This document shows positions 7,277 to 59,700 of a stretch of DNA of 64,000 nucleotides, one piece after another (position 1 is the first letter of the stretch; each line of letters opens with the position of its first letter). The DNA is from Candidatus Omnitrophota bacterium (GTDB taxonomy: Bacteria > Omnitrophota > Omnitrophia > Omnitrophales > Aquincolibacteriaceae): the NCBI GenBank assembly GCA_903856085.1, contig CAIOAT010000044.1:25402-89401 (forward strand). Reading direction: 5' to 3'. Made by a program: the position numbers and the translations under genes. The notes below the pieces were generated by a model. The model did not search any database. It was not told the origin of the DNA and saw only the letters and a list, made by a program, of their open reading frames with translations.

Positions 7277-7505
7277 AAGCGGTCCGGTAGTACGGCCTGC
7301 TAAGCAGCCATTAAGATGCAAAGAAAGCTTGGGACAGTACTCATTTTCAATGGAACTTACAGCCCAAAGCAAGCGCGTACGGAGCAAAAGCGAAAAATTA
7401 CGACCCCTTGTGTCACCCGCCGTAAAAATTCGGGCTTTTCTTTTCTCCTCTAAACTTCTATAATGCGGTCTTCCTAGTTTCAAATTCAACCCGGCTTTTT
7501 CCCAT

Positions 7506-36548: not shown

Positions 36549-36586
36549 GTCCTCAGAACTGTGTAACCTCAGCGGAGAATTCTTGA

Positions 36587-37774: not shown

Positions 37775-37867
37775 GCCAAAAAAATAGTGCTTTAGTTTCA
37801 TAGGACGATATATAATAATACCCTGATTTTTTAAAACCACATTTGCACCTCCTGGGGGCTACTCGTT

Positions 37868-38707: not shown

Positions 38708-38731
38708 GCCACGCTTCCTGAGAGATGGCCC

Positions 38732-40603: not shown

Positions 40604-40616
40604 GAGCTCGCCCGTT

Positions 40617-41453: not shown

Positions 41454-41495
41454 TACCGCCCTGTTGCTTTGGATTTTCCCGCCTAATTTTGTTGT

Positions 41496-41568
41496 GGGCC
41501 TGTAGCTCAGCTGGTAGAGCGCTGCATTCGCATTGCAGAGGCCAGGAGTTCGACTCTCCTCAGGTCCA
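41496..41568 (+). tRNA. tRNA-Ala (anticodon CGC)
   Basis: 73-nt cloverleaf: acceptor GGGCCTG/CAGGTCC with the G3:U70 Ala identity pair, D-arm GCTC/GAGC, anticodon stem CTGCA/TGCAG with loop TTCGCAT, T-arm AGGAG/CTCCT with loop TTCGACT. There is no encoded CCA. Confidence 0.9.
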
Positions 41569-41590
41569 CTCTTTCCTTAATGCCTAAGAA

Positions 41591-41625
41591 GGACGAGTGC
41601 GCCGGTCCTCGTCATAATTTCTTGC
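41591..41625 (+). terminator. Weak hairpin after tRNA-Ala (GACGAG-N10-CTCGTC, then ATAATTTCTT)
   Basis: 6-bp stem at 41592-41597 / 41608-41613 followed by a T-rich tract. Confidence 0.3.
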
Positions 41626-41797
41626 CTTGATCGACTTGCGAGTACCGTCCCCATTTCAGACCTGCTGTAAAAGCTCATTTTTTGATAGAAAGAGCTTCTT
41701 TAAAGCCGGAGCTCTGTAAATAAAAAGCGACGCATTTTTTGCTGCAATTATTCACGTCCTTAGGCGGTCTGTTTAGGGATGCTTTTCCCCATAGCGC

Positions 41798-41826
41798 TTG
41801 TCAATACAGAGGGCGTGGGTTATCTT
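41798..41826 (+). promoter_or_regulatory. Candidate sigma70 promoter for G1: TTGTCA-17nt-TATCTT
   Basis: TTGTCA at 41798-41803, a 17-nt spacer, TATCTT at 41821-41826. The predicted 5'UTR is about 48 nt. It is flanked by a TCAATACA direct repeat. Confidence 0.3.
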
Positions 41827-41880
41827 TTATCAATACAAGCATTATAAAAGACTTAACCAATGAAGAGAGGATGACCCGTA

Positions 41881-44800
41881 ATGGCTGGAACTTTAACGGA
41901 CGATAAAGCCCGACGACGAGAGCGTTTCTCGAAGCGTCTCATTGCGATCTTTGTTGTCGTTGTTTTTACGCTTTTTGACGCCGTTCGCTATGCTCCACAA
42001 GGCTATGCGAGCCCTATTGCTACAGTCGTTGATCCTGTCCTTGCGTCTGTTTCGATTCCCAAGGAACTTGGTAAGGTGGAGGAATCCTTTCGCGGGACTG
42101 CGGGCAAGACTGTGATCTTCATTGAGGACGCCCATGATTCCCTTGAAGCCCAGGAGAATATCGCAAAGCTTATCGGGAAGCTCGTAAAAGAAAATGGGAT
42201 CAAAACGGTTTTTGAAGAGGGCTACGAAGGCTCGGTTCCTACGGATAAGTTTTTTGGTTTTATTCAAGATCCCAAGATCAAACAAAAAGTCTCCTATTTC
42301 CTTTTGGATAAACTCCGTGTCGGCGGCGCGGAATACGCGCATATCAATCGGGTAAACGATTTCAAGCTGATCGGGGTCGAGGATCTCGAGCTGTACGGCG
42401 AGAATATCCAGTCCTACCGAACCTCCTCCCGAAATAGGCAAAGCATCGATGAAGACTTGAAAGAATTGTTTTCACAAATCGCCGTCCTTGCCGACCGGTA
42501 TTTTTCAAAGGAACTAAGGCGTTGGCTAAAGCACAAGGATCGTTTCGGGGAGGGGCAACTGCCGCTTCTTGATTATCTGAAAAGAACGCGTGACATCTTT
42601 CTTCAAAAGTGCTCGGCGCGCATGTTTGGGCAGCAATATCCGGCGGTGACGATCCTTCTCGCTGCGAAGTCATCGCGGGATCCGAAGCTTCTCGATCAGC
42701 TGAACACTTTGGATCTTAAGGTTGTTTTTGACGAAGTTTTGAGGTTGGAACGGGATCTTTCCAAGAGTTTTCTTGAAAATGAGAGAGATCGCAAGATCTT
42801 CGATTATTATCAGGCCCTGGGGCTTCTTAAGAGATTGAATCGAATCGAACTGACTCAGCCGGAATATGAAGCAGCCCAAGAGACGCTTCAGAAATTCGAG
42901 ACGCAAGAATTAGCGAATTTCATAGTATCTCTCACTCATCATTCATTGGTTCTTTCCAAAGAGTGGGAGCATCACATCCAGGATGCTATCCGGTTCTATG
43001 ACGTGGCGCACGGGAGAGATCGATCAGTCGACGTTCGTCTCAGAGAATTTCTTCGGAATAAAGAAGGAGATTCTGCGATTCTTGTGTTTGGCGGGTTCCA
43101 TGCAAGCGGCATCAAGGAGATTCTAAGGCAGCAAGGTCTTTCTTACATCGTAATTTCGCCGAAGATTACTTCCGTTGATAAAAAGCACCGGGATTATTAC
43201 AAACGGCTAATGTCCGAAGGTCGTCACTCCTTCGAAACCCCACTTCTCGTGGCTCGAGCCAACAGGTCTCCGGGCTATTTTTATTTAGCCGCCACAGGCA
43301 AAGAAGAATTTGTTCGTGCGGAACTCCGAGATATTGCTTCTTCCGTCAAGGCGCTTGGAGAGAACGCTGACTCGCTGCTGATTGAGCGCGGCCTCGCTGC
43401 ATTTGATCAATCGCGGGAGCATCAGCTTGTCAATGCAGAGACTGAAACATCGCAGACTCGTTCCGAGGTGCACTTGGATACTGTTCATTTAAGTGCTTTT
43501 CAGCCGGCGGCGGTGGTGAGCCGCCGTTCGGAGATGCGGGTGATGGAACCGGAAGTGCGAAAAGTTCTGGATGAAAAGTTCCAGGCGGTGGCGAATTTTC
43601 TCTCTGCTCGTGAAGAGTATATGCCGGGTCGCAATGTTCCCCTCCGAGACCAATGGGCTCCGACTGAGATCAGTAAGCTTGCGTTTTTAAAAGGGGAGAA
43701 GATCCTTGTCATGATTCTCGGGACGTGGGAGGACAAGGTCGCTTTTGAGGCCGCGCCAATCATCCGGGATCTTCGGGCCCGTGGTTATGATATCAAGGTT
43801 TTGACCAGTGGGAAATACGGGAACAAACCCGGAGTATTCTTTGATGCGCAGGGAAACCGGCTTCCTGAAGCTGTCGGTTACAAGCAAATCTTAGAAAAAG
43901 AAGGGGTGTCCGTGGATTTTGTGGAGCCTGATTCGACGAATTCTGGAGACAATATCCTGTTTTCCAAGAAAAAAATCGATGAGGCCGGATACAAGCCTGA
44001 TGTGATCATCGTGATGCAGAACGGGCTTCTTCAAAAGCGGGCCGGGTTGAGCATTGTCCGCCAGCATTTTGGGATTAAAAATGAAAAAGAAGAACATGAG
44101 GCCAAGAGAAAATTCGACGCCTCCGGCCTCCGGCTCATCAGCTACGCGCCCTATGTACCCAATGTTTCCGGACAAAGCGATCCAGAGGTCCTGCTAACTC
44201 TTGAATACGCATTAAAAGAGGTCGAAGCCCTGAAAAACTATCCCGCAATAGGATATACCATTCCTGTAGCGATCCCAGAGGATGTCCGCCAAGCAGCGGC
44301 AGATCTGACCGCAATGCTGGCTGAAATCAACAAGAGGATCGAAGAAAAAGCTAAAATTAAAGAGCATGTTTCTGACCTCGGGCAGGTGAAAGAGCGTCTT
44401 CGCACCAAATGGAATGAGGTTCGTTGGGTTCACAACAGGATTCCCGGGAAGAAAAATATTCCTGAGCCCGTTGGGCAATGGACTCAAGATGGTTTTTTAT
44501 GGAAAGGCATTTATAACCAGATTGATCCTCATGCTCTGGAAACAGCGATCGATCCCAATCCACCCGCCGGGCAAGAGCCGGCAAAACCAGGCTGGGTATT
44601 CGGGGATTATCCGGATGCCTCTCAAGTTCTTTTTACGGTGGATATCGACGGAGAACAAGGCAGAGTGCTTGTGGCTGGGGACGCGCAGCTTTCCAACGAA
44701 TCCCTTCTTATTCTCGATCGCGATACGCATCTGGTCTTGACGGATGAAAAATCCAATCTTTCGCTTTTGAAATTCCACAGGCGAAGCGGACTGAAAGGTT

Positions 44801-47800
44801 ATATCAATTTATGGGGGATAGGTCAGTTCCCGCGCTTGCACGATCATTTGGTTGAAGATATGCCCATCTTCGGATTACCGCTGAGAAAATCAGGCGGAAA
44901 AGTTGATGGTCTCGAAATGCAGGAGCTTGGGAATTATGCGGCCTCAACGCTGGTTTATACGGATGATGACGATGCGAAGCTTGCGGCGGTCATGGCCAAG
45001 ACCGCGCAGGAATTGTTGGAGGAAAAGATCCCGCATCAGGTGTTTCTTGCGGCCGGAAAGGTCATTTTTGTTCTGCGCGGTAGCGATCCACAGACGCTTC
45101 ATAAAGTCGAAGGGGAAAATTTCGCCGGACGGTACCTTACGGGTCAATTTGTCGGAGGGGTTGTCGGGTATCCGAAGGCGAGTGCCGATAAGATCACGCC
45201 TGAAAAATATCAGGACATAATGAGACGGGTTAGTCAGCCGGTCTCGATACGTGCTCGGATCATTTCAAATTTGCAACAGAAGGGGGTGGTTTCTCCTGCC
45301 CGGAATAATAAACGTTCCGAGATGCGTAAAGATACGGCGGAACAAGTGACGACCGAGATCTATGATCCGAAGCAAGCGGGGATCGATGTCAGTGTGAATC
45401 CCGTGCCAAGCGGGCATTTCCGGTATGACCAGGCGTCGAAACAACATTTCTGGGATGGAAAACAGGTTCTTTTTCGTAAAGACGAAGGCATTGCTAGAGA
45501 ATCCGCAGCTCCAGGAGCCCGGACTTGGCCGGTCGATATTGCCTGGGAAGAACATGAAAAAGATTTTGCGGCGGCTCATCCGTTGTTCGATCTTCACTCC
45601 TATGGAAATCTTTACAACAACGCTGGGTTTGTTGTCTTTGACGGGAAAACAGGCATGCTTTATTACCAGGCCGGGGAAGCCTTTGAGAAAAAAGCGTATT
45701 CGATGCTGGTTTCTTGGAACGATCGCACCGTTACCTCCGAGAATGTCCGTTTCGAACAGATCGCCGGAGGCAAGGCCGGTAAAGTTCAGGTGTTTGTTGA
45801 TGGGCAGTCGGGACCGATTCAGGACAAGATCCGGTTCGCGGTGTTCGGACAGAGATTAATCCACAAAGGCGCCGTGGTGCCTCTTGAGGCGGTCGCAGAT
45901 CAATTCGAGGACCTGTTTCAGCTTTATCGGCTTCCTCAATTCATGCAATGGAGAGAAAACGCGGCGCCAGTCTATGGACGAACGATCGGTGTGGAGGAGT
46001 TGGCCCGTTGGAGGACTACCGGCGATCCCAGGGACAAGGCCTTATTTATGGACGTTGTTCGTCATGATGGCTACATGGAGATTGATCTGACAGGTTATTT
46101 GCGGGAAGAAAAAGACAGCAAAGTCACTGTCAGGACCCTCAAAGAGATCAAGGACGGGGCTCTTACTCCGTTTGGCTATAAAGAAGTGGGGCTCGCGGAG
46201 CCGCAGGCGTTAAAGCGAGGCGAATATTTTATCCAAGACAACAGGCTGCATATTCGTTTTCTCCCTTATCCGTACCCGCATCATGTGCTCGGGATCACGG
46301 CATCGGGGAAAGTCGTTTCGGTTCTTTACATAGGAGACAAATATAAAAAACAGGGCGTTACGCTCCAAGACCTTCCTGAGAGCGTTCGCGAGCGCTATGG
46401 GAATCAGGAGAAAGATCCCATCCAGGAACTCCTCGTGATTGCGCAGGGTCGGGACAGTTTCCGCCGTCGTGACGGAAGACTTTCCGAACGCAGTCCTTAT
46501 ATCAATCTCAAGGGAACTGCCGCCATCCTTTTTGAACGGATCATGCCACCTGCCGCATCTACTTCTCAGGATTTGCTTGCGCCTCGCTCCGAGATGCGGA
46601 ATGCTGATGCGTCAGCGGTAGGCATGGCTGCTGTAAAACGACAAGCCATGGAAGCTCCCGACCCAGAGGGTTTCCTGAAAGTTGTAACAGCGTATCGCCT
46701 CGGAAAAGGATTGCTGACCACCGATAAGACTTTTTTCCTAACGGGTATTTATGACTTTCTTGGAAACACCGATCCCATTATCTCGACTCTGGAAGATATC
46801 GAAAGACGCACGAAGACCGGGCGGCAGCTTTTAGAGGACGTTTGGCAGGATCCTCAACAGCGTTCCAAGCTGTTTGATTTTGCCATTTCATACCATTACA
46901 GCTACACGCGCGAAGACCGGCTTCTAGAATTGGTTCGTAAACTTATCGAGGGGATCCAACAGCGGGGGGATTTTGCTTCGCAGGAAAAAATAACCATTCT
47001 GGACATAGGAACCGCTCCTAAGAAGTTTGGCTCTCCGACCTCGATGCAGACGATGGAAATGTTCCGCGCTGCTTTCCCAGACAAGCAAATAGAACTTAGC
47101 TCCGTAGACATGCAATTCCCAGCTTCATTTAAATTTAATGCCGAAGGAGTATATGTTGATGAGCGGACAGGTATCCGTTACGTCAACTACGACATCCGTA
47201 AGGGACCGTTGCCATCCGCTGATATTGTTATTGCCGTGAATCTGTTGGATCTTTATCAGGATGTTCAGGAGAGGAAACGTATTCGGAAGAATATTTTTCA
47301 ATCCAGCTTGAAGTATGTCGTTACTGGCGTCAAGAGTACGGAGGATATTTTCCGGCGTTCTAACGAGCAATCTGATCAATGGACAAAGATCGCAACAGTC
47401 CAGTTAATGGAGGAATGGTATGCGCAAAGTCTCTACCAAGGATTGGGTTTTTCTTCAGAAAACATAGGCTTCCAGAATTTGGCGGTGCGAAACGACTTGT
47501 ACGTCAATTACGAGTTCATGAAACCGCTTTTCGCGTTGCTCGAGAAGACAAAAACAAGCCGTTATCATGCCGCGTTCCAGGTTCTTACCGTGCTCTTTTT
47601 GCGCGGGGAATTGGAGGCACTTGTGTCGGGTGAGACGGTGAGTTTTCCAATGGAAGGCAGGCCTTTAGCAAAGTACTTTCCCGCAGAGAAGGATCGGGAG
47701 GTTATCCACCAGTTTCTGGTTTTTATGCAGGATCTGAAAAAGACGAGGGTTTTGAAGAATGAGGCATCGAACGATCCGAATCATGTGATCCCCCGGTTCT

Positions 47801-50187
47801 ATGAGTTGATCAATTTGTTTATTCTTGACCAGCACCAAAGGGGCGTGCTTCCGAAGTCTGGAAAAACATTGAAGATCTTATTACTCCAGGCAAGAGCGGA
47901 ACCGTTCGGATATGTTCCGGCCTATCTTCCCATAGGATTACCGGCACTGACGGCTGCTCTGAAAGGGGATGATTATCAGGCGCGCTTGTTCTCGCGTTTA
48001 TTGGTAGATCCCGATATTTACGAAAACTATTTAACCACGGATAAAGATGTTCGAGCGATCGATTTTCAGACCAAGGAGGCGTCATTTGAATTCGAAAAAT
48101 ATCTGTCGGAATTCAAGCCCGACATTGTCGGAATAAGAACGGTTTCAGCTTCCATCAAGGAATCCCAAAGGCTGGCCCGGGTCGCCAGGGCGGTTTTGGG
48201 GAATCATGCGCAGATCCATTTTGGAGGTTATCACATTACTGCGTTGCCAGAGGAAACGATGGCGGAGAACAAGGGGATTGTGGACGTTGGGTTTCTTCAA
48301 GAAGCTGAAGAATCCTATCCGCATTACTTGGCCATGTTCGTCAGCGGTCAGGATCCTGCCTCTGTGCCAGGGATATGCTATTACGACCACACCGGAAAAC
48401 TAGTTAAAACCGCCCCGAGAAGACCCGTGATCCCTTTTGATTATTATCCTTCCTTTATGGATTTTTTCGACATGCTTCCGGATCTTGATCGCTATGCGGA
48501 GCTGATCGTCGATAGCAAGCATGGGAAGATAACTTCCAAGATGGCTTTACTTGTGACGGAGCGAGGATGTAAGGCCCACTGCGCCTTTTGTCCGACTCGC
48601 ATCATGTTTGGCGCTTCGGGGATCAGATTTGATTCTGTCGAAACCGTTCTCAGCATTATGGAGGCCTATTATAAAAGGGGCTATCGGATATTCAATTTCC
48701 GGGATGATAATTTCACCGGGGATAGGCAGAGGGTGATGGCTTTGTCGGATGCCATTATCAAGAAAGGCTGGAAGATAGCATGGACATGCATGTCACGGGC
48801 CGACACGGTGGATGAAGAACTACTGACTAAGATGTACGACAGCGGCCTTTCGATGATCGCTTTTGGGGTGGAAAGCGGATCGGAGGATATTTTAAAGTCC
48901 ATGGGCAAGAGAGAGCTCTTATGGCCGATCAGAAAAGCCAATGTGTGGAGCCGGAAGCTAGGAATCTATTACAAAAATTATTATATGGTGGGTGCCCCAG
49001 GGGAGCAATGGCAGCATATCCTGAGGACATTGCTTTTCATGGCGGATTCCTTCGGAGGTTTTTCAACCATCAATCAAGCCGTTCAAGAAGGTCATGTCGT
49101 TAATGATGGAGAATATAGCGCAGCCTTTGATGGCTTGGTCAAAGAGGTTTCAGGTGCGGGGGAGGGCCTGGAACAATTCCTGACGAGGGAATTGAATTTT
49201 GTTGGGATGAAGCAGGATTCCGTTAACGTGGCTTACGCGATGCCGTATCCCGGTTCCACATGGTATAACCAGATAGGAAAAAAGATATGGATGGAGACCG
49301 ATCTTTTCCGGCATGGTCCCGCGGATCGCGACAATCTTGGCGTTTATAAATCTCCGACGCATACGGTAGAAATGACCCGTGAGGAAATTTCGGAAGCGAG
49401 GGAAGCGGTTGTGGGTTTTTACAAGGCTTTGGAGCAAAAAGATCGCGGAAAAATACTGGAGATCTTGGGAAAAGTTATTGGAAGAAGTCGCTCTGAGCTG
49501 CATGGACCGGAACGCAATCACGAAGAGCTGAAGACTTTGATTTCCCCATCAGGAAAACGTTCCGAAATGCGAGTTGCCCCAGAGGCGATATTAGGGGATG
49601 GCGGAACTCTTCGCGGGATCCCGAGCGCTAGTCCTGTAAAGGCTGTTTCTCGGGCGCGTGCTGACCGGATGATCCGGAGTGTCGGGAAAAATGTGCAGGG
49701 AGCAACGGTGTTCGTGGACGCGGAAGATTTTCCGAACCTCTCTCTGGAACAAAAACAGGAATATTTGATCGTGGCGCTTTCGAATAAAGCGCTTCACGTA
49801 GTAGTCTATAATGAGCATGAGCAGGTGCGTGACGAGTTGTTGGATGCTCTTCTCAAGCTTGACCGCGTGACGAGGACCGACAAAGACCTCGTCGGGGCCC
49901 AAATCAGTTTTGACCGGCCGAATGCGCCGAGCATTCATCTTTCCAAGCGGAACCTTCCATCCCCGGAAATGGTCCAACGTTTCAGGAAGAGGATCGCGTT
50001 TTTCAAAACGCAGGGACAAAATGGTGGAACTTTGGCTGCAGCGCTTCTTTGGTCGTGGTCGGGCGGGGAGGAATCCCGATTGAGGGAGGTGACCATGCAG
50101 GATGGATTCTGGGTCGTTGCTGAGTCCTTGGTTAATGCGCTTCAAGCCAGCTATGAAAGCAATCTTGCTTTTGCGGTCGCGGCCTAA
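41881..50187 (+). CDS. Giant (2768 aa) membrane-anchored multi-module protein G1 (module list in evidence)
   Basis: Single uninterrupted ORF with a GAGAGGA RBS and an N-terminal TM (LIAIFVVVVFTLFDAV). Modules: a TraB/GumN-like N-module, a DUF218/YdcF-like module, a phosphodiester-glycosidase-like module, a class-I methyltransferase-like module and a B12-binding radical-SAM module. The CxxxCxxC motif GCKAHCAFCP is at nt 48568-48591, followed by GYRIFNFRDDNF. R-S-E-M-R recurs four times at module borders. Confidence 0.85.
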   Translation: MAGTLTDDKARRRERFSKRLIAIFVVVVFTLFDAVRYAPQGYASPIATVVDPVLASVSIPKELGKVEESFRGTAGKTVIFIEDAHDSLEAQENIAKLIGKLVKENGIKTVFEEGYEGSVPTDKFFGFIQDPKIKQKVSYFLLDKLRVGGAEYAHINRVNDFKLIGVEDLELYGENIQSYRTSSRNRQSIDEDLKELFSQIAVLADRYFSKELRRWLKHKDRFGEGQLPLLDYLKRTRDIFLQKCSARMFGQQYPAVTILLAAKSSRDPKLLDQLNTLDLKVVFDEVLRLERDLSKSFLENERDRKIFDYYQALGLLKRLNRIELTQPEYEAAQETLQKFETQELANFIVSLTHHSLVLSKEWEHHIQDAIRFYDVAHGRDRSVDVRLREFLRNKEGDSAILVFGGFHASGIKEILRQQGLSYIVISPKITSVDKKHRDYYKRLMSEGRHSFETPLLVARANRSPGYFYLAATGKEEFVRAELRDIASSVKALGENADSLLIERGLAAFDQSREHQLVNAETETSQTRSEVHLDTVHLSAFQPAAVVSRRSEMRVMEPEVRKVLDEKFQAVANFLSAREEYMPGRNVPLRDQWAPTEISKLAFLKGEKILVMILGTWEDKVAFEAAPIIRDLRARGYDIKVLTSGKYGNKPGVFFDAQGNRLPEAVGYKQILEKEGVSVDFVEPDSTNSGDNILFSKKKIDEAGYKPDVIIVMQNGLLQKRAGLSIVRQHFGIKNEKEEHEAKRKFDASGLRLISYAPYVPNVSGQSDPEVLLTLEYALKEVEALKNYPAIGYTIPVAIPEDVRQAAADLTAMLAEINKRIEEKAKIKEHVSDLGQVKERLRTKWNEVRWVHNRIPGKKNIPEPVGQWTQDGFLWKGIYNQIDPHALETAIDPNPPAGQEPAKPGWVFGDYPDASQVLFTVDIDGEQGRVLVAGDAQLSNESLLILDRDTHLVLTDEKSNLSLLKFHRRSGLKGYINLWGIGQFPRLHDHLVEDMPIFGLPLRKSGGKVDGLEMQELGNYAASTLVYTDDDDAKLAAVMAKTAQELLEEKIPHQVFLAAGKVIFVLRGSDPQTLHKVEGENFAGRYLTGQFVGGVVGYPKASADKITPEKYQDIMRRVSQPVSIRARIISNLQQKGVVSPARNNKRSEMRKDTAEQVTTEIYDPKQAGIDVSVNPVPSGHFRYDQASKQHFWDGKQVLFRKDEGIARESAAPGARTWPVDIAWEEHEKDFAAAHPLFDLHSYGNLYNNAGFVVFDGKTGMLYYQAGEAFEKKAYSMLVSWNDRTVTSENVRFEQIAGGKAGKVQVFVDGQSGPIQDKIRFAVFGQRLIHKGAVVPLEAVADQFEDLFQLYRLPQFMQWRENAAPVYGRTIGVEELARWRTTGDPRDKALFMDVVRHDGYMEIDLTGYLREEKDSKVTVRTLKEIKDGALTPFGYKEVGLAEPQALKRGEYFIQDNRLHIRFLPYPYPHHVLGITASGKVVSVLYIGDKYKKQGVTLQDLPESVRERYGNQEKDPIQELLVIAQGRDSFRRRDGRLSERSPYINLKGTAAILFERIMPPAASTSQDLLAPRSEMRNADASAVGMAAVKRQAMEAPDPEGFLKVVTAYRLGKGLLTTDKTFFLTGIYDFLGNTDPIISTLEDIERRTKTGRQLLEDVWQDPQQRSKLFDFAISYHYSYTREDRLLELVRKLIEGIQQRGDFASQEKITILDIGTAPKKFGSPTSMQTMEMFRAAFPDKQIELSSVDMQFPASFKFNAEGVYVDERTGIRYVNYDIRKGPLPSADIVIAVNLLDLYQDVQERKRIRKNIFQSSLKYVVTGVKSTEDIFRRSNEQSDQWTKIATVQLMEEWYAQSLYQGLGFSSENIGFQNLAVRNDLYVNYEFMKPLFALLEKTKTSRYHAAFQVLTVLFLRGELEALVSGETVSFPMEGRPLAKYFPAEKDREVIHQFLVFMQDLKKTRVLKNEASNDPNHVIPRFYELINLFILDQHQRGVLPKSGKTLKILLLQARAEPFGYVPAYLPIGLPALTAALKGDDYQARLFSRLLVDPDIYENYLTTDKDVRAIDFQTKEASFEFEKYLSEFKPDIVGIRTVSASIKESQRLARVARAVLGNHAQIHFGGYHITALPEETMAENKGIVDVGFLQEAEESYPHYLAMFVSGQDPASVPGICYYDHTGKLVKTAPRRPVIPFDYYPSFMDFFDMLPDLDRYAELIVDSKHGKITSKMALLVTERGCKAHCAFCPTRIMFGASGIRFDSVETVLSIMEAYYKRGYRIFNFRDDNFTGDRQRVMALSDAIIKKGWKIAWTCMSRADTVDEELLTKMYDSGLSMIAFGVESGSEDILKSMGKRELLWPIRKANVWSRKLGIYYKNYYMVGAPGEQWQHILRTLLFMADSFGGFSTINQAVQEGHVVNDGEYSAAFDGLVKEVSGAGEGLEQFLTRELNFVGMKQDSVNVAYAMPYPGSTWYNQIGKKIWMETDLFRHGPADRDNLGVYKSPTHTVEMTREEISEAREAVVGFYKALEQKDRGKILEILGKVIGRSRSELHGPERNHEELKTLISPSGKRSEMRVAPEAILGDGGTLRGIPSASPVKAVSRARADRMIRSVGKNVQGATVFVDAEDFPNLSLEQKQEYLIVALSNKALHVVVYNEHEQVRDELLDALLKLDRVTRTDKDLVGAQISFDRPNAPSIHLSKRNLPSPEMVQRFRKRIAFFKTQGQNGGTLAAALLWSWSGGEESRLREVTMQDGFWVVAESLVNALQASYESNLAFAVAA

Positions 50188-50579
50188 TCGAACCAATGCT
50201 TATTCAGTCTTTTTTGTGATTTTAGCTGATTAAAACCATCAGACATCCTCTTTCCATGCCTGCGGAGAGTTGCTGTATTTTTTAAATGCCTTTTCGTCGA
50301 AGTTCTCGGCGGTTTCTGGCAAGCTTTCACTAGTAGGCCCCTCCTGAATTTCAAAAAAATCTTCAAGCTTAAAATTGGTTAATTTTAAAAAACTTTTTAT
50401 TATCATGATAAATACGCTTATCTTAAAAATCAAATTTTAGCCAAAAAGTCTCTGTTTTGTGTGTTTCATAATGCTATAAGAAATTATAAGGAATATTTTA
50501 TAAGTTAATATATTTTAAAGGAGTGTTATAACCAGTTGCTTGGTAACAGGTTACATCATTAAATTTTTTTTAGCTTTGC

Positions 50580-50608
50580 TTGACTGGGAACCTTCTATTG
50601 TGTATATT
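50580..50608 (+). promoter_or_regulatory. Near-consensus sigma70 promoter for G2: TTGACT-17nt-TATATT
   Basis: TTGACT at 50580-50585, an exact 17-nt spacer, TATATT at 50603-50608. It sits in a ~30% GC spacer about 107 nt upstream of the G2 ATG. Confidence 0.5.
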
Positions 50609-50714
50609 TCTATTAGGTTCTTAAGACTTTAAAATAAGTTTTATATCGTAGTTACCAATCAGCTATGAGCGCGTAGAGTAGTTTTAATCGAATCTGAGAG
50701 AGGACGGCAATCCG

Positions 50715-53700
50715 ATGATCAGCTGGCAGCAACCGATGATCAAGCCTTGGCTAAGAACCGTCGCCTGCCTGACCGCCTTTGTTTTTCTTTTTACGAGCGT
50801 GGTCTGGGATGGTGGCGTCAAAGCCTATGCCGCCGCCTCTAATTCCGTAAGCGTCACCCCCATCGAGACATTCAAAGCCAATGCCGCGTCTTCTCTGATC
50901 GACCGTCCCGATCTTCCGGACAGCTACGGAACGATCAAGGGAACTTTTAAAGGGAGTCGCGACCAGATTGTCCTTCACATCCAGGACGCGCACGTCAACG
51001 ATGAAGCCCAGCGCAACATTGCGCACATCCTCCAGTATTTTTCCGAGAAATACCAACTTGGCCTCGTGAGCCTTGAGGGTGCCTCCGGCGAACTTTACCC
51101 CGAACTTTTTTCTTTTTTCCCGAACAAACAGGCTCGCCAGAATGTTGCCGATTACTTCCTGAAAGAAGGCCGCCTCACGGGTCCAGAATATCTTGCGATC
51201 GTCGAAAAGCCCGCGATGACGCTTTATGGCGTGGAAGATAAGGAGCTTTACGAGGAAAACCGGAAGGCCTATGTGGATGCGCTCCAGTTCAAGGACCGCG
51301 ATGAGAAGATCTTGGCGGAACTGAATAAGGTCCTTGAAGGCATCAGTCGTTTTGTGTTTCCCGAGGAAATGCGCGAACTCGTTCGTCGCCGTGCCGCGTT
51401 CCAAGAAGGCGGACCGGAGCTGGTCTCTTATGTCCGCTATCTGGTGGAACTTGCCCGTAAGCACAATATCGCGCTTGATGAATATCCCGGGATGCACTCT
51501 CTGATTAAGCTGGTGGATCTTGAGAAGCAGGTTGATTTCGACAAGGCCGAAAAAGAAACCGATGCATTGATTAACGATCTCAAGCATGTGCTGACGCATG
51601 AGAAACTCTCCCGCTTTCTCACCAACACCGTTCACTTCCGTATGAAGAAGATGAAACGCGCCGCCTATTATGGGTACCTCCAGGATGAGATCCAGGGCGT
51701 GAGCGTGGCTCAAAGTGGCGGGGAGGAACTGACTACCAAGTACGCCAATGTGATGGCCTATGTGGAGTATATGAAACTTTATGATGCGATCGATGTTTCG
51801 ATCTTTGACGAGATCGATTTCCTTGAGAAGACCGTCAAGAACAAGCTCTTCACGAATCCTGAGCAGGTCCAACTCGATCACATCCTTCGAATCTATGACA
51901 TCTATTGCAAGATGTTCGATTTTACATTGACCAAGCAGGACGCCGAGTTCTATTACACCTATCAGAATGAGTTCAAGTCAGAGACTTTTGTAAGTTTTCT
52001 CACACCGCTCATGTCGAAGTACCACTTCACCTACGGATTGCCGTCCCAAGTGAAGACACTCGATCAGGATCTGCCGCGCGTGGAGCGCTTTTATAAAGCC
52101 GCTCTGGAACGCGACCAGGTGTTGATCGAGCGAGCGGTTGAGAAAACCCTTGCCAGCGGGCAGAAGATATCCGCCATCGTTACAGGCGGTTTTCATACGC
52201 CCGGGATCGAGAAGTACCTTCGTGAGAAGGACATCTCCTATATAGTAGTCGCCCCGCGTATCACCAAGACGATTGATAAGAAAAAGGAAAGCGCGCTCTA
52301 TGACGCCGCTTTGCGCCAAGCCCCGCTTTCGATCGAAAAAGTTCTCACGGAAACATTTCTCCAACCCAAAACCGGCGTTCTGAACGATCCTCGGTTCCAG
52401 TTGCAGGCATGGTTGGCGATTTCTCCCAAAGGAGAATTTGATTTCAAGTCCGATGTGGCTTTGTTCTTCCCCCTGACCGCCGCAACGAATATTTTTGAAG
52501 TCGTGAATGCGGCAAGAGAGCAGGCCCGGCAGGAGGGGAAGTCGCTCTCCAATGAGCAGATCACACCCTTAGTGGCCAGCGAGATCGAAAGGATGAAAAA
52601 AGATGCGGCCAGGGATTTGTCGGGAGGTGATCTGAGTAAAGTCGAGGCGTTGCTCAGTATGTTTCACCCCGAAGCATTCTCAGGTAATGTGCTCTGGGTA
52701 CCTGCGGGAAACAGTGGGGACTTCCTGGCTTTTGTGCTCCACGGTAAGACGGAAAAAATAAGCGAAGAACCGGGAGCTGTGCGGGGGACTCGACAGACTG
52801 TTTCATTTGGGCCAGAAGAAAAGACAGCGCTGTCTTTCTATCGGGTGCGTGGCTCTTTTGTTCCGGACGCGATCAGAGGAATGGTTCGTGCTGAGGCGCG
52901 TGTTCTGGCGACCCCTCAGACAGGACCTATTGCGGTCGTGGCGGGTCCAAACGCGAAGCAAGAGGCTCGTGATCGAGAAATAGCAGCCCAGATCCAAGCG
53001 ATCAGGGCGGAAGCCAGGATGAAGGCAACAAAGGAAGACGTCAGGGCCGCGGCTAGAGTTCAGGCGAATCTCCCCATGTTTTTGGATTTCATAAAAGCAT
53101 TTGGCTATAAAGGCCCCATCGATAGGATCCAGGCCGCAGTGATAAGGCCTGCCGATCCCAAGGAAGATAAACCTACGGTCGAGTTCCTGAAAATTCTTTC
53201 AGATCCTGAACTCAAACAGCGTCTCCAGGCCCTCGCAGTATTCTTGTCATCATTGAATCCGGAAGAGCTTGCGACAAAGAAATTGTCGCAGAATGAGTTG
53301 CGTCTCTTCTTGCTCTGGGGGGCTAAAGCTAACGGGCTCAAAAAATATCCGGAACTGGCCAAGATTTTAGAGGACATTCTCGCAGGTCGAACCCCGTCCG
53401 TTTCGCAGGCTGCGACTCCTGCAGAGGTTTCTGCGGCAAAAGCTCCTGCGGTGACTACTCCTGCGGCTATTCCTACAGCAGCAACTCTTGCAACCGAAAC
53501 GGCGGATCAGGTCAAGGCGCGGGTTGAAAAGGAACAGGGCGGTTACTTCGGCTCGTATGTCCGGCGCGGAGTTCTCGGGTGGAGTGCTGTCGGACTTATC
53601 GCCGGATTACTTTTGGGGATGATCATGCCGGCCACAGTGGTAGCTTTTCCACTTGTTTTCGGATTCGTAGCGTTCGTGTTGCGGGCGTTGAGGGCCTGGT

Positions 53701-56700
53701 CTGTTAAGAGTGGGATCACCGTTCAGGCCAATCCGAAGGGTGCCGGATGGATTGTCACTTCAGCAAACGGAAAGAAATGGCTCGAAGGTCTTTCGGCTCC
53801 TGATTTGTCGACGATCCAGGATAAAAACGAACAGCGGCAGGCTTCCATTGATTACAAACTTCAAAATTGGCCGGCATATCGGAAAATGCACGAAAGTAAA
53901 ATTTTCAGCGATGATTCCGAGTCCGAAGCTGCCGCTAAGGCTGAGGCATCCGCAAAGAAAAGGATCCTCCAGTTTGTGGGGATTGGGACGGCTGTAGGCG
54001 TTATTTTGGGGGCCACGACCGTACTTCCCGTGGTGGCGACAGTTGCTGTTTCCGCGATAACCGCCGGGTTTTTAGCTGCCGCTGTGTTGAAAACACGGGC
54101 GGAGTGGAAAAAACAGGGCGGGACGCAGAATATAATGAAGCAGGGTGTTTTTACGGCGATCGGCCTTGCTCTCAAAATTTTTGTGAGCATGCCCTTTCAT
54201 CTTCTTGATGGTTTTATCCTCCAATATTTCCGCCTTCGCATCAATTATTTTATCTTGGGCGCCAAGAATCAACGCTGGATCACGAATGCCGAAACGCAAG
54301 CGATGGTTGAAAATGCCAGGACCCATGAAGCCGATAAGAATCTTTCACGGACAGACCGTTTTATCCGTACGGATCTGGGATACGGGATCTGGGTCACACT
54401 CCAGGCTTCGCAGATCGCCGCTCTCTATGAATTTTTTCAAAAACGGGCCAAACTTTTTGTCTATGGCCAGCTCAGTGGTATTGTTTTAACAGCCGCCGGA
54501 ACCTCGCTTCCCGTCTTCGCGGTTTTGGGCGTCGGATTCTGGGGCTATATTATTGTGAAGCAGGTTCTAGCTTATCGTGCCGCCCAGGCGAAGGGACAAA
54601 ATCTGCCGGCCCATTGGCTCCGGAATCGCATTCTCGGGCATTTGATCTTCGCGACGATCTTTGGCGGTCTGATGTGGCTGGGCGTTTCTCCTCCGTCCTG
54701 GGCTGTGGCGTCTCCGGGTACCGGAGATGTGGCCACGAAAGCGTTGAATCTTTTTGGAATACCCATACCCTCTTTTCCCGCTATTCCCGGCGTCCCTCAT
54801 TTTGATCTTCTGAATCTTGGGGCCGTAATTCAAACGAAGGGCACGATATTTGGATTTTTAGGGGATAAGGTCCACCTCACTTTTCAGGCCATTGCCAGCT
54901 CTGCAACACTGAATTTTCTTTTGGCAGTGACGACTCAGATCCCGAACAAAATGCGTGAGATCATGATGCGCGACACGATGGTCGATATGGCCCGCATTTT
55001 AGTTCCCCAAGCAAAAAATCTTAAGGAAGCATTCGACGGGCTTGCCAAGTATGGGATCACACCCTCAAATTTTTCTCTTTCGGGGATTTTGGCTCTGTCG
55101 GGTGAGAAACAAACGCCGGAATGGATGGCCCTTTCTGCTGAGCAGCGGGCGATTGTTCTCAAGCTTATCGAGCGCGATCTGAAGGATCGCATTTATGGAA
55201 TGAACCGTTACGATGCGGGGCTCGCTCTTACCGCTCTGGGTCGCGCCATTCGTGAAAATGATCCCGAAGGTCAGGTTTCTATTCCCGAAAAACTCGCACG
55301 AGGACAGGGGATTGGCTATCGCATGCGGGTGAACGCCGCCGCTCGCCGTGAAGTTTTAACGAGTGGGTCTTTTTGGGTTTCGATGGTTTTTGGGACTTTT
55401 TCGATGTGGGTGGTGACGCACGAGATCGCGGCTATCGTTCATTATGCTGAAGGTATTGATAAAATAATCAGTTCGGCTTTGGGTGTGGATTTTCATCTTT
55501 TCGGTACAGGTATTAAAGGGATCGAAGGAGACCAGTTGAAGCAGAAGGAACATGCCGAGATGGCCCAAAGGGGAGAGCATGTTGCTTTCACGGATCGTTT
55601 GATCGCATCGGGACTGCTCAGTAGTCTTCAAACGAGTGTACAAGAAGTCTCCACGAACTTTGTGGTGCAGCCTTACATGATCGCCAAGCGGACGGCAGAT
55701 CAATTGCCGGCCATAAAAGCGAACCTTGGGAAAATAGCGGATGAACGTTTTGGTTTTGCGCCCACCAAGGCAAAAGCTGATTTTATTGACAGCGCTCACC
55801 GGCAAATTGCCGTAATGGAAAAAGCAACTTACTGGTCTATTGTTGGCCAGAAATTGGAGGGGGTTGCCCATTTTGCGGGATCGGCGTTCAATGCATTAGG
55901 CTCTGTCCTTGTGACATCGGCGAGAGCTGAATCGTTGCCTCCGATGATGGTTCCACAAACTGAAGTCAAGGAAGGTCTGCAAGCCGAAATTCCGGCAACG
56001 AAACCTGCTGAAGTTGCGGCGGTAGCGCCTGTTCTGCCTGCTCCCGAGGCGCCGAGAGTTTCTGTTGAGGCTCCGGCGGAAGTAACGAAACCGGCTGAAG
56101 TTGCGGTGGTTGCTCCTGTCCAGCCTGCTCCTGAAGTGCCGAAAGCTGAAGTCAAAGAAGCCCCTGCGGTTCCTGAAACTGCGTTGAAACTCGAAATGCC
56201 TTCGCCGTCGTTGAGGCCTCTGACGGATGTTCAGCCTGCTCCTGAGGCGCCCAAAGTTTCCGTTGAAGCTCCGGCGGAAGTAGCGAACCCCAAAACGGTG
56301 GCTCAGCCGGCGCTTCCGACAAAAATATTTGAGATTAGTCGGGAGAATGTGAGGGAGGGGGCAAAAGGTGCGGAGCGGATTGCTGCGAAAACTATTGTCC
56401 TGACTCTCAAGGCCGAGGATATGGAAGCGCTTATTCGAGAAGGAAAGGCTCTTGCTTTTTCATATAAGGATAACGGGTTCTGGAAAGCGAAGACCAAAAT
56501 TCCGAGAGCTTTGAATGATCCCGAGGTCACACACTTCAGTATTGGTAATGATGTCTATAAGATCGGTTTACCCACGACGGTGGTGGGTGTGCAGGCGACT
56601 CCAAAAGCTGTGACGTCATCCACTTCAGTCAAAGCCCCTCAACCCGTTGCCGCGAAGCAATCGCCTGCCCAAAAAATCGGTTTGGCCGCTGCGGCGGCCG

Positions 56701-59700
56701 GTCCCGTGGCTGCTGCGTCAGAGTTGTTCGTTTCCGCGCTGGAGCCGGCCTCGGCAAAATTTACCACCATGGATCTTCCTATGCCGACGACGGGGATACG
56801 CGATATTTTGATTACTGCCATGAAAGATAATCCCATGTCGCGGCAGGCTGGGGTTGAAAAGGGCATTAAGGATAAAACCGTTGAGTCGTTCGCTTGGTGG
56901 TACCGCTGGATCACCCTAGACCTGCAAGTTTCATATAATTTTATGCCGCGCGATCTTCCCTTGTATCAGAATAAGTCCGGATCGGGACCCAGCAAAGATG
57001 TGGATTTTTCATTGGGTTGGGAGGATGCCGGAAGCGGGAACATAAATCTCGGGCTTCCGATCTATTCCCCCGAGGGATATCCCGCCGAGCACATGGAGGC
57101 TGTTCCTATTCTCGATGCGAATGGACAACCGACCGGGGACACAGCGCTTGTTAGCAGACCGGGTATCCCCACAACGCCATTGACGCAAAGTCAGTTTGAT
57201 GCGCTACGGGGCGTGACTTTCACTCCAGACGGCAACAACTATGTGCTGTCGGGATATCAGCCCGTGCTGGATAGTGTTGTCATTCCGATGGGAGATGTCA
57301 ATATCACCAAAGGGCTCCTGGTGCAAAACCTGAATGCGATCGCCGGGAACGAAAGCTTTTGGAAGCTCTTCAATCTCCCTGCCGGCACGGCTTCCCAACT
57401 GGTCAGTGATCCGGCCTATCAAAAGGCCATGGGATTTGCGAGCTATTTTGCGTCGCGCTATGACAACCCGCTTAATACGGGCGATAACCTCAAAACTGTT
57501 TTTAAAGGCGCGACTCTTCCGCAGATCATGGAATCGATGGCGCGCATGAAAGCGACGGCAAGAAAGAATCTTGGCCGTGATTTTAGTTTGGATAATCCCT
57601 ATGATGCGGCGCTTCTGACTTATCTTTCCAGAGCGGATCTCACGGATCAGGCGGAAGGAACTACGATCGTCCGCGAGATCTTAAAAGAGCGGGATTGGGA
57701 AGCGAAACTGATCCTGCGTTTTGAACCCCTGAACCTGGCTCGAAGCCGCCAGGCGAAGATCAGCAAGGCGGAAGCGGAAGCTGCGAATGCGGACCTCCTG
57801 AAAACCGAGACGACCGTCCTTCGGAACACTACCCAGCAGCTTTATGTGATCGCGCTGGCGAATCAACAGATTGCTGACAAAGAAAAACTTATCATAGCGT
57901 TTGAAGCGGACGATGCCGAGCAGCGCGCTGTGCGGGGTGTCGAGGATAACTCCCTGACGCATACCCGCATTACAAGTGAACTCCAAAAACTCAAGATCCA
58001 GATCATCGTCCTGAAGACCGAGCGGGACGAGGCCAAAAGGAAAGTCCTCGAACTGGCGGGGCGGCAGCCGGGTATAGATCTGGGTTATCCGGTCGAGGAC
58101 ATTACTCTTAAAGTCGTCGGTGATGCTGTTGCCCAGGTACCACTTTCGCAGGCCGATGTTCAGGCCGTGATCGAAAGAGCGTTCGCGAGTTTGCATCAGG
58201 CCGTGGCATCGAAGGCAGCGCTAGGTGGAATTGACGCAACTTTGGCCGTTCCGCAAGTCACCGTTGACATTTTAAGGATGGCAGGGATATGGGACCTCGG
58301 CGATAAGGTTGCCGTCGAGATCCGCTTAGATCTCAGTTGGCAGATCAAAAGTCTTTTTGAGAGTAAGGTTGCAAATGCCCTCTTTGAATCCGAAGCCTAC
58401 AAGTTCGCGTCACGCCTTCGCGGGATCTACGAACGGCATAACCTGCTTGAGCGAGAAAGTGTCCATACCGCAGAATTTATCAAATCGTTGGAAAATGGGG
58501 TTTCAGCGCAGGATCGTTTGATTGCTGAGATCAAGAACGATTCTAACAAGCACTATCGCCGAGATCTGAGTCTTGTGCAAGCCCAGAAAGACCGGGAGAA
58601 AATGCAGGAAGACCTCGACGGTTCCAGGCTGGCTCTCCAGTTGATTCAGGATGAGTTGCGGAATTATACAAAAACGGACGCCCAGATCGGGAAGCTGCTC
58701 GGAGAATTCACCAAGAAGGATTCCGGACGAGCGAAGATCATACAGACCGCGATTAGCGCCATGCGGGCCGATGTCGCGAAGGCATGGGCTGCTCAAGATT
58801 CTGTAAATCGTGATGCTATGATCCAAGAGGCTCAGACTCTGGCGGATCGATTAGCTTCGAGCGAGGCGGAATCGGCGCGGGTCCATGAGGAGATCTTACG
58901 CGAAGCAGATTATAACCTTGCCAGCATTCGTAAAGATGCAAAACTGGATGCCCTCAATTATAACGTCTCCAATTGGCTGCGACTTTCCTTGTCGGGTGGA
59001 ATCGGTTGGGGGTGGGGAGATCGAAATGAAAAGGATATTACGCTTGAAGCGACGCAGTGGAAATTACGCGCGGACGCTCAGGCGACCGCCAAAGTTACTT
59101 TGTATGATCCGACACTTTGGGCAAGAGGTCGTCAGCGGCAATTGGCCCAAGATACTGCTAAAAAACTTTTAGACCGGTCAGGTGCAGAACTGGCCGCGTC
59201 CGTCTCCGGATGGCTGAACAATGTTCGTCGTGAATCCGAACTCCTCAATCTGACCGAAGCGACATTGAAGACGAAGCAAATCGAGCTTAAAGGCGCCAAG
59301 GACGAGGCCGATGCCGAGTTGGGTCGTACTACGCCGGCCAAGGATCGTCTGGCGGTCTTAGCAAAGTCTGAAGGAGAGCGTCAAAAGCTTTATTCCTGGC
59401 GGGCGAAGGTCAGGATCGCCAGCGCAGAGGCGAATGTCGAAGCGGCGAGGATCAAGGACGAGGCCGCACGCAATAATCTTTTCAAAGTCATGATGCAATT
59501 CAAGTCGTTTGCTTTTGCCGGGGATAAATCGCCCGCGGCAGCAAAGCCGATTGCTCCCTCTAAGGAGGCGCAGCCGTCGATCAGCATGTCACCTTTTGCA
59601 CCCATCACGGATGCCGCGGGTAGAATCTCTGAATCCGGGACTGCACAACTGAAGATTTTGGCCAAGGATTTTGACGAACTATTTCGCAGCCTCGTCAGGG

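Follow-up and report, generated by a model that had tools for sequence, protein, structure and literature searches.

The 64,000-nucleotide stretch of DNA analyzed here, referred to below as the window (Candidatus Omnitrophota bacterium, contig CAIOAT010000044.1, positions 25,402 to 89,401), contains a giant modular open reading frame (ORF), G1, at positions 41881..50187, stop codon included. It encodes 2768 amino acids on the + strand, where all features described below lie unless stated otherwise. Read from its N-terminus, G1 consists of a signal-peptide-like sequence, an N-terminal domain that defines a large protein family (the N-domain), a series of modules separated by a short peptide motif that we write RSExR, and a conserved C-terminal domain (the C-domain). 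One of the modules is a radical S-adenosylmethionine (SAM) enzyme unit, and a Pfam scan of the whole of G1 at curated cutoffs returned B12-binding and Radical_SAM and no other family. A preliminary description of the window, made from the sequence by eye, had placed a B12-binding radical-SAM domain inside a giant protein instead of a free-standing enzyme. Both domains do lie within the single 2768-residue ORF, and the strings and coordinates that were quoted, among them GCKAHCAFC from nucleotide 48568, are exact. The frame is open without interruption for 8.3 kb, its composition is even across the gene, and a 99%-identical protein, likewise of 2768 residues (P0001), is present in an independent ENA assembly. 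G1 has only six cysteines, at residues 244, 2166, 2230, 2234, 2237 and 2303.

The radical-SAM enzyme unit occupies 47386..49488 (residues 1836-2536) and is made up of an N-terminal extension of about 160 residues, a B12-like Rossmann domain, a radical-SAM barrel and C-terminal helices. The Rossmann domain (47929..48312, residues 2017-2144) matches PF02310 with an E value of 2.6e-11 and 43.8 bits, against a cutoff of 32.1; the radical-SAM core (48562..49038, residues 2228-2386) matches PF04055 with an E value of 1.3e-15 and 58.4 bits, against a cutoff of 29.5, and is also detected by Foldseek and by profile comparison with the PDB. The preliminary description had located the enzyme at residues ~2000-2400, which is the right place, but the full unit extends well beyond this on both sides. 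To examine its conserved positions, we aligned the radical-SAM module with 29 relatives (alignment A2, 30 sequences). All of the invariant or near-invariant columns are present in the G1 module, including PDIVG, GGxH, RGCxxxCxxC, DDxF and GVESG. The three cysteines of the cluster motif CKAHCAFC (48568..48591; Cys2230/2234/2237) are near-invariant, and GGYHIT of G1 aligns with GGxHxT of the family. FRDDNF and FGVESGSEDIL fall on the invariant columns D302/D303 and G356-V357-E358-S359-G360, which, from general knowledge of the superfamily, we take to be the SAM-binding elements (the GGE equivalent and the ribose or GxIxGxxE-type element); the preliminary description had proposed to check for such a GGE-like motif.

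The predicted fold is in agreement with the sequence. An AlphaFold2 model of the radical-SAM module has a predicted local distance difference test score (pLDDT) of 82.8 and a predicted template modeling score (pTM) of 0.85, and Foldseek matches it to radical-SAM structures with E values from 2.8e-21 to 1e-16: TsrM (2.8e-21), AprD4 (target-normalized score, TMt, 0.74), MgmA (TMt 0.70), OxsB, CysS and TokK. The A2 profile, when compared with the PDB, finds AprD4 (1.5e-57) and MgmA (4e-45), and also OxsB, TokK, TsrM and CysS. The G1 module aligns end to end with free-standing B12 radical-SAM proteins of 430-500 residues, at 23-28% identity, and is 14-18% identical to any solved enzyme among the Foldseek matches. 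Two inserts are shared with its closest relatives only: one, lineage-specific and modeled with low confidence, lies in the Rossmann domain (residues ~2041-2066; model residues 68-93, pLDDT<50), and the other, of about 60 residues, follows the barrel. Sequence and modeled fold together put the identification as B12-binding plus radical-SAM far beyond chance. The class-B architecture that had been proposed, in which a B12-like Rossmann domain precedes the radical-SAM barrel, is borne out by both Pfam and Foldseek. On the same evidence, 47386-49488 is a complete and apparently functional class-B-type radical-SAM unit, carried as one cargo module of G1. Taken by itself, the module is an additional member of a known superfamily. 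It belongs to no named subfamily, because the 20 B12 radical-SAM families listed by NCBIfam all score far below their cutoffs: the best, HpnJ (TIGR03471), gives 122.5 bits against 577.6, and the cutoffs of named equivalogs such as ApyD, PhpK, BchE, HpnR, BzaD and MgmA are not reached.

Orthologues of the radical-SAM unit also exist as free-standing genes, and they define its boundaries. One of them, P0121 (540 residues), is 49% identical over 94% of the query; an in-frame stop codon lies about 30 nucleotides upstream of its called start. Another, at 5890-8111 of locus L081, is a gene of about 740 codons interrupted by a run of N only, which aligns with G1 residues 1836-2199 onward (37% identity, E value 1e-66) and has the housekeeping genes TrmE, FolE and AccA as neighbors. 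Because this orthologue aligns from residue 1836, we define the conserved enzyme unit as residues 1836-2536. All three cluster cysteines are kept in both orthologues, as GCIGKCTFC in P0121 and GCTGNCTFC in L081. Close relatives of the unit were not found among the GTDB representative genomes; those that we have come from metagenome protein data only. The N-terminus of the L081 orthologue is signal-like (MKAKTIKLISIILAMTFLYQQMGWG). Its C-terminal end, ...RLRSETIASQI*, holds a motif-like remnant six residues from the stop, which could be a sign of capture into, or release from, a modular giant.

Whether the module uses cobalamin is a separate matter. We infer that it may. In fold, the Rossmann-plus-barrel model matches the cobalamin-bound structures TsrM, OxsB and TokK. 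AprD4, which is among the best structural matches, is a diol dehydratase, not a methylase. To our knowledge AprD4 works without cobalamin, and we know of no sequence motif that is diagnostic of cobalamin binding.

The segment directly upstream of the radical-SAM unit, module 4a (46600..47385, residues 1574-1835), contains the strings that the preliminary description had read as a methyltransferase-like Rossmann module. We found no support for this reading. Residues 1574-1835 have no Pfam match even at E<=10 and no homologue in a search of 5.8 billion proteins. A custom class-I methyltransferase profile, built from 13 domains of family members, scores -2.7 bits, with a single alignment that falls on the string quoted as motif I; at that position G1 reads GTAPKK, not GxGxG. 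A methyltransferase module at residues ~1702-1820 is therefore unsupported by Pfam, homologue search or custom profile. In addition, the putative methyltransferase region lies outside the conserved enzyme unit, because the free-standing orthologue begins downstream of it, at residue 1836.

Is the embedding of a radical-SAM enzyme in G1 an isolated fusion? A search with the whole of G1 listed 119-120 homologous proteins, giants of ~1,500-4,800 residues that share only 15-30% of G1. All of those whose source names a phylum come from Candidatus Omnitrophota/Omnitrophica, except two labeled Verrucomicrobiae. Coverage mapping showed that residues ~50-450 are common to 118-119 of 119 homologues and residues ~2590-2768 to 26, with nothing in common between. 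A profile of the N-domain, searched against protein clusters at 50% identity, found 8671 clusters at E<=1e-3, of which 3519 reach <=1e-30; the 150 best matches carry it at or close to the N-terminus, in proteins of up to 6720 residues. In GTDB representative genomes, 166 stretches encode the N-domain. We kept the best 80, among which all records that name a phylum are Omnitrophota/Omnitrophica except one labeled Planctomycetales, and many say 'uncultured bacterium'. Several metagenome-assembled genomes (MAGs) hold 3-5 of these 80 loci each. PF04055 is present in 12 of the 120 listed proteins, in 4 of them together with PF02310. G1 is thus part of a very large modular family seen in Omnitrophota MAGs, in which a signal-like N-terminus and the N-domain precede variable enzymes, and radical-SAM units recur in it as cargo.

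The family-defining N-domain spans 42049..43443 (residues ~57-521, about 460 residues). No Pfam or NCBIfam model matches it, or the C-domain. Its model shows a TIKI/erythromycin-esterase/TraB-like alpha/beta core, with a parallel beta-sheet and a helical insert of about 220 residues. Foldseek ranks BcR135 and EreC first, both weakly (E values 0.03-0.15). Comparison values are 9.0 for RRSP (a MARTX effector), 8.5 for a TraB-family protein, 8.4 for ChaN and EreC, 8.3 and 7.7 for BcR135-type proteins, 7.8 for HopBA1 and 6.7 for PMT, a set that has been defined as the TIKI superfamily (PMC6254334). In an alignment of 18 N-domains (A1), the invariant residues are D83-A84-H85, E112-E113, R146, H154, R157 and G404-G405-F406-H407. 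RRSP depends on E3900, H3902, E3930 and H4030 together with R4001 for catalysis, and BcR135 uses H85 and E113 (PMC6254334). In G1, D83-x-H85, E113, R146/R157 and H407 have the same order and the same 28-residue spacing from His to Glu as in RRSP and BcR135, a correspondence read from sequence only and with Asp in place of the first Glu. The N-domain thus matches the sequence pattern of the TIKI catalytic constellation well, and these residues may be its equivalent.

The modules of G1 are set off by RSExR. The motif occurs six times: RSEVH at 43459..43473 (residues 527-531), at the end of the N-domain; RSEMR at 43525..43539 (residues 549-553), 45313..45327 (residues 1145-1149) and 46585..46599 (residues 1569-1573); RSELH at 49489..49503 (residues 2537-2541), immediately behind the final helix of the radical-SAM unit; and RSEMR at 49558..49572 (residues 2560-2564). 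The position of the first is conserved throughout the family, with R527 and E529 invariant in A1 and the arginine column at 531 at least 90% conserved. It lies about six residues past the last predicted helix of the N-domain, in a linker with pLDDT<50, and all modeled motifs lie either in such linkers or directly after a last helix. In each of the two doublets of G1 (43459-43539 and 49489-49572), RSE[V/L]H is followed by RSEMR at a distance of 17-18 residues (18 in the second doublet). The first doublet follows closely on the N-domain and the second shortly precedes the C-domain; a doublet right behind the N-domain is seen in many homologues.

Comparison with homologues shows that the motifs coincide with the edges of exchangeable units. 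Module 2 (43540..45312, residues 554-1144), the first cargo unit of G1, starts after the RSEMR at residues 549-553 and has a weak DUF218/YdcF-like region at residues ~631-729 (43771-44067; E value 2.3e-5, 24.8 bits, below the cutoff of 27.6). It is 73% identical to residues 3848-4431 of P0002, which lie between RSEIR 3844 and RSEVR 4432 and form the last cargo unit of that protein. Between G1 and P0002, identity rises from 0% over the 30 residues ahead of the left motif to 63% over the 30 residues behind it, and it ends near the right motif. Homology between P0003 and module 2 likewise starts directly after RSEMR 549-553. Module 3 (45328..46584, residues 1150-1568) has no Pfam match of its own, and appears to be a divergent phosphodiester-glycosidase (NAGPA)-like module through its homologues only: BLAST finds P0031 (35%, 2e-64), P0014 (26%, 2e-18) and P0003 (1e-13), and the aligned parts of P0014 and P0003 score above the cutoff for PF09992, with 52 and 29 bits. 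Here again the match to P0031 begins just after a motif of that protein, at 1516. In P0009, nine of nine Pfam domains lie between motifs, and a B12-binding and radical-SAM pair fills the module at 1758-2457. We conclude that modules are separated by RSExR in disordered linkers and that whole motif-bounded modules are exchanged between family members.

The motif itself is strikingly bare. Its logo is a pentapeptide of R, S (84%) or A (15%), E, one of V/L/M/A/I (also T), and R, flanked by small residues at -1 and +1 and by no other conservation. RSExR-type motifs occur 570 times in the 119 homologues, and the five commonest 5-mers beyond residue 450 in these proteins are RSEVR (147), RSELR (140), RSEMR (128), RSEAR (78) and RSEIR (42), each expected less than once. 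Family proteins contain 1.4-1.7 motifs per 1000 residues, at a median spacing of 320 residues, the size of one enzyme; 18% of the spacings are doublets of <60 residues. By comparison, none occurs in 59.5k residues of radical-SAM homologues, in 12.5k residues of the other ORFs of the window, or in the 126,475 residues of 377 complete ordinary ORFs flanking family genes. At the DNA level, the R, S, E and R positions differ among copies by synonymous codons, which implies selection on the peptide. The codons are also biased: in 362 motif instances from the 80 Omnitrophota loci, the first Arg is CGY in 74% (background 41%) and Ser is TCN in 95% (background 70%), and at position 4 a third-base G is enriched for Val, Ala and Thr alike. 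This skew points to a shared origin of the motif copies or to a bias of the local context. The alternation of S and A, together with the small residues at -1 and +1, fits a protease or binding subsite, not a phospho-acceptor.

At the other end of G1, the C-domain (49648..50184, residues ~2590-2768) ends in ...NLAFAVAA-COOH. The C-terminal ends of 26 homologues match it at 45-75% identity, and one more does so weakly and in part, which makes it a conserved domain of about 180 residues in many family members. Compared by profile with the PDB it has no significant match (best E value 0.33). Even where the C-domains diverge, family C-termini end in -x-[A/S]-A-COOH (KSA, QSA, KAA, VSA, TAA, SAA). 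The last residues of G1, ...AFAVAA at 50167-50184, are of the same kind; such small-residue ends recall C-terminal recognition tags.

The preliminary description had called G1 a membrane protein, which overstates the case: it has one hydrophobic core of 13 residues (residues 20-32), its sole strong hydrophobic peak, and no other transmembrane candidate. This core, LIAIFVVVVFTLF, is part of the signal-peptide-like N-terminus at 41881..42009 (residues 1-43), where it is preceded by the basic stretch KARRRERFSKR and followed by DAVRYAPQGYA, the end of the putative leader, and then SP. Over 161 members of the family, the median length of the uncharged core is 13 residues (interquartile range 13-14), with a net charge of about +3 before it. 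Many of the 40 N-termini listed have D, Q or N after the core and then ...YA or ...FA about 10 residues on. A short core after a positive stretch is typical of cleavable signal peptides, and judged by its sequence the N-terminus of G1 looks like a cleavable Sec signal rather than a membrane anchor. We also considered a signal for Tat, the export route of folded cofactor proteins; by eye, there is no consistent twin-arginine motif across family N-termini. The cargo of the family includes radical-SAM units, nucleoside diphosphate (NDP)-sugar epimerases, ROK kinases, sigma-70 regions and helicases. It is paradoxical that a radical-SAM enzyme should follow an export signal.

G1 is followed by a second giant ORF of the same family, G2 (50715..63998), which runs past the end of the window and encodes at least 4421 residues. 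Its paralogous N-domain is TIKI-like, with IQDAH and GGFH. There is no Pfam match across its 4421 residues, about 10 hydrophobic segments lie at residues ~940-1560, and its RSExR-type motifs are two RAEAR only. An ORF of 376 residues on the minus strand (50751-51881) was judged to be a shadow of G2. Same-strand tandems of family genes such as G1-G2 are frequent, and at 8 of the 80 loci (L004, L012, L019, L020, L021, L031, L054 and L061) the gene for an N-domain protein is closely preceded by the end of a giant ORF that carries the motif. A tRNA-Ala gene (CGC anticodon; 41496..41569) lies 311 nucleotides upstream of G1 and separates the giant genes from an alpha/beta-hydrolase gene; it was found by ARAGORN and, as the sole Rfam match, by RF00005 (68.7 bits). 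tRNA genes commonly serve as integration points. A scan of 41300-50800 for promoters and terminators gave counts no higher than in shuffled sequences. Farther upstream, 34515-41453 holds a run of lipid-type genes: a patatin-like phospholipase with cyclic nucleotide (cNMP)-binding domain, a thiolase, a 279-residue protein without Pfam match, an acyl-CoA synthetase-like AMP-binding enzyme and an S33 alpha/beta hydrolase. Positions 1-33700 are ordinary chromosome, with the dcw genes FtsW, MurG, MurC, MurB, Ddl, FtsQ and FtsA, the glycine cleavage system, an LplA/LipB-type ligase, UvrD, M48 and M16 peptidases, BatD, TrpA, Rpe, LepA, signal peptidase I (LepB) and SPOR proteins. Because the rest of the window is ordinary chromosome, G1 is not on an obvious mobile element.

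These observations lead us to propose that G1 is a polyprotein-like precursor processed at RSExR, with the N-domain as the best candidate for the protease, a judgment in which we see the chances as evenly balanced. G1 would be synthesized as one chain, probably exported by Sec, and then cut at its RSExR marks. The N-domain is proposed as the protease for its likeness to TIKI, RRSP and erythromycin esterase and for its D/E-x-H...E...R...H constellation. The first motif, after the last predicted helix of the N-domain, could serve to free the N-domain itself. In the released radical-SAM unit, of ~80-110 kDa, the [4Fe-4S] cluster would cleave SAM to a 5'-deoxyadenosyl radical, and the enzyme, with or without cobalamin, might then methylate or rearrange an unactivated carbon. 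The DUF218-like and phosphodiester-glycosidase-like modules, and the HpnJ and AprD4 families, hint at a glycan or a lipid as the substrate.

Several points weigh against this proposal. Cleavage products have not been observed, and all of the processing of G1 is something that we infer. Besides peptidases, the TIKI superfamily holds esterases and non-enzymes (EreC, ChaN, PMT). Some members of the family have few or no motifs (P0046, P0052 and P0058, and G2), two of the six motifs in G1 end in H, not R, and there is no motif between module 4a and the radical-SAM unit. The codon bias of the motif means that a contribution at the DNA level, or from common descent, is possible. No cobalamin (cob/btu) genes are present among the ~40 other genes of the window, and cobalamin binding is not readable from sequence. 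Finally, we know of no way in which an enzyme dependent on a [4Fe-4S] cluster, SAM and a reductant could work outside the cytoplasm.

How do other explanations compare? G1 could instead be an uncleaved multi-enzyme scaffold, a long chain of tethered enzymes. RSExR would then act as a hinge, as a docking site for a partner or for the N- or C-domain, or as a place of modification, and the radical-SAM enzyme would work in cis with its neighbors on a common substrate. This would account for the lack of evidence for cleavage, for the location of the motifs in flexible linkers, for the junction of module 4a with the radical-SAM unit, and for motif doublets 20-45 residues apart, which are odd for simple cleavage; a 2026 preprint also treats such proteins as intact membrane-associated multi-enzyme clusters (10.64898/2026.06.07.730766). 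Nevertheless, the modules are enzymes without relation to one another and their order is shuffled: one module comes first in G1 and last in P0002, which speaks against a pathway of fixed order. A protease site would more typically be a strict pentapeptide with a requirement for S or A and no flank conservation than a hinge would, and every member is headed by a hydrolase-like domain in which residues of catalytic type are conserved. We regard a scaffold as rather doubtful. A more elaborate version of the polyprotein proposal, in which G1 and its thousands of self-processing relatives are exported by their signal peptide, the N-domain cuts RSExR, the freed cytoplasm-type enzymes, an oxygen-sensitive B12-type radical-SAM enzyme among them, act outside the producer as in a MARTX-like effector delivery built from other parts, and the C-domain serves in targeting or translocation, seems to us unlikely; were it correct, the site of action would most plausibly be inside the host or prey of these parasitic or predatory nanobacteria.

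The preliminary description itself implied a single envelope or membrane giant in which a SAM methyltransferase and a B12 radical-SAM methylase act in tandem on a difficult methylation. The radical-SAM and B12-binding domains are indeed real, the upstream segment is contiguous with them across a motif-free junction, the methyltransferase profile aligns in G1 only at the motif-I string, and fusions of a methyltransferase with a B12 radical-SAM enzyme exist elsewhere, for example in P0200. We nevertheless consider tandem methylation improbable: the methyltransferase assignment is without statistical support, the free-standing orthologue starts past the region in question, there is one short hydrophobic segment only, and the module falls below the cutoff of every named methylase family. 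It is still less probable that RSExR is a nucleic-acid or translational signal, such as an in-frame internal start (with ATG, GTG or TTG as x) or a recombination microhomology. This idea draws on the dominance of M, V and L at position 4, the frequency of GTG among Val codons (55% against 29% in the background), the overuse of CGY and TCC at positions 1 and 2, and the coincidence of the motif with module boundaries. On the codon counts, however, we rejected internal translation starts at the motif: an NTG codon is present in only ~41-47% of instances, and the enrichment of GTG is equaled by that of GCG (Ala) and ACG (Thr), which are unable to initiate. Synonymous changes leave R, S and E in place, CGYTCCGAR is not a Shine-Dalgarno sequence, and 15 degenerate bases are short for homologous recombination. 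That G1 is an artefact, either a chimeric assembly or a decayed pseudogene, might be suspected of a sequence whose source is probably a metagenome assembly. We think the chance of this negligible, given the uninterrupted and compositionally even frame, the full-length copy in an independent assembly, the intact catalytic columns and the recurrence of the architecture in thousands of family members.

Comparison with known systems helps to place G1. Its radical-SAM unit resembles the class-B enzymes TsrM, OxsB, TokK, CysS, MgmA and AprD4 in its Rossmann-then-barrel order, CxxxCxxC motif and GGxH, DDxF and GVESG columns, and differs from them in its two inserts, its ~160-residue N-terminal extension and its signal-fronted, 2768-residue modular host. 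The N-domain shares with TIKI, TraB-PrgY, erythromycin esterase and ChaN a beta-sheet core with flanking helices and the pattern of acidic-x-His, Glu, Arg and His; unlike them it has the ~220-residue helical insert and Asp for the first Glu, and always heads a multi-kilodalton modular protein. Domains of the TIKI superfamily are often found outside the cytoplasm, as in Tiki and PrgY. Like MARTX toxins, G1 has conserved N- and C-terminal regions with variable, recombining enzyme modules between, as in a giant secreted protein. In MARTX an internal protease cuts the linkers and frees the modules, for which the cleavage of G1 would be the postulated counterpart. The Pfam scan of G1 gives no RTX repeats and no C80-type cysteine protease domain, the candidate protease is of a different fold and N-terminal, the signal is Sec-like instead of type I, and the family's cargo consists of metabolic-type enzymes, not known toxins. 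Membership of the MARTX toxins is thus excluded for G1, and the resemblance is one of layout only. With viral polyproteins G1 shares several unrelated enzymes in one ORF, a short conserved junction peptide and an in-chain hydrolase-like domain with a motif at its own boundary. In contrast to these, it is encoded on a cellular chromosome, beside dcw, glycine-cleavage, LepA and LepB genes, with many shuffled-cargo paralogues per genome.

Multi-enzyme giants of Omnitrophota that contain radical-SAM domains are already known at the level of a catalogue: Nielsen and Lui described very long Omnitrophota proteins, with radical SAM among the frequent Pfam domains, in 90 of 916 (10.64898/2026.06.07.730766). 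As in G1 and its family, these proteins combine many unrelated enzyme Pfams per chain, mostly with a signal peptide or transmembrane helices, and present the same paradox of cytoplasm-type enzymes predicted to be outside (10.64898/2026.06.07.730766); they differ in being at least 10,000 residues long, against 2768 for G1. The words cleavage, linker, processing and polyprotein do not occur in the text of that preprint (10.64898/2026.06.07.730766), whereas West-Roberts et al. speculated about proteolysis and stated that the cleavage points were unknown (10.1101/2023.11.21.568195). In the literature that we searched, no paper uses RSEMR or related strings in this sense, links TIKI or polyproteins to Omnitrophota, or describes the N-domain. 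To that extent RSExR punctuation, the TIKI-like head domain, the shared C-domain and motif-bounded module exchange are all features that we did not find described.

Our results bear on Omnitrophota giants in several ways. A family of about 8,700 clusters at 50% identity is without a Pfam or NCBIfam model, and RSExR provides a simple rule for splitting its members into modules in annotation and structure prediction. For the question of whether these giants remain whole or are cut, the motif supplies exact candidate cut sites, and the N-domain is a candidate protease with named residues. In the course of evolution, a class-B-type unit has moved between free-standing genes and the modular giants. 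We know of no radical-SAM enzyme that works behind an export-like signal; either this rule of topology or the supposed site of action will have to be revised.

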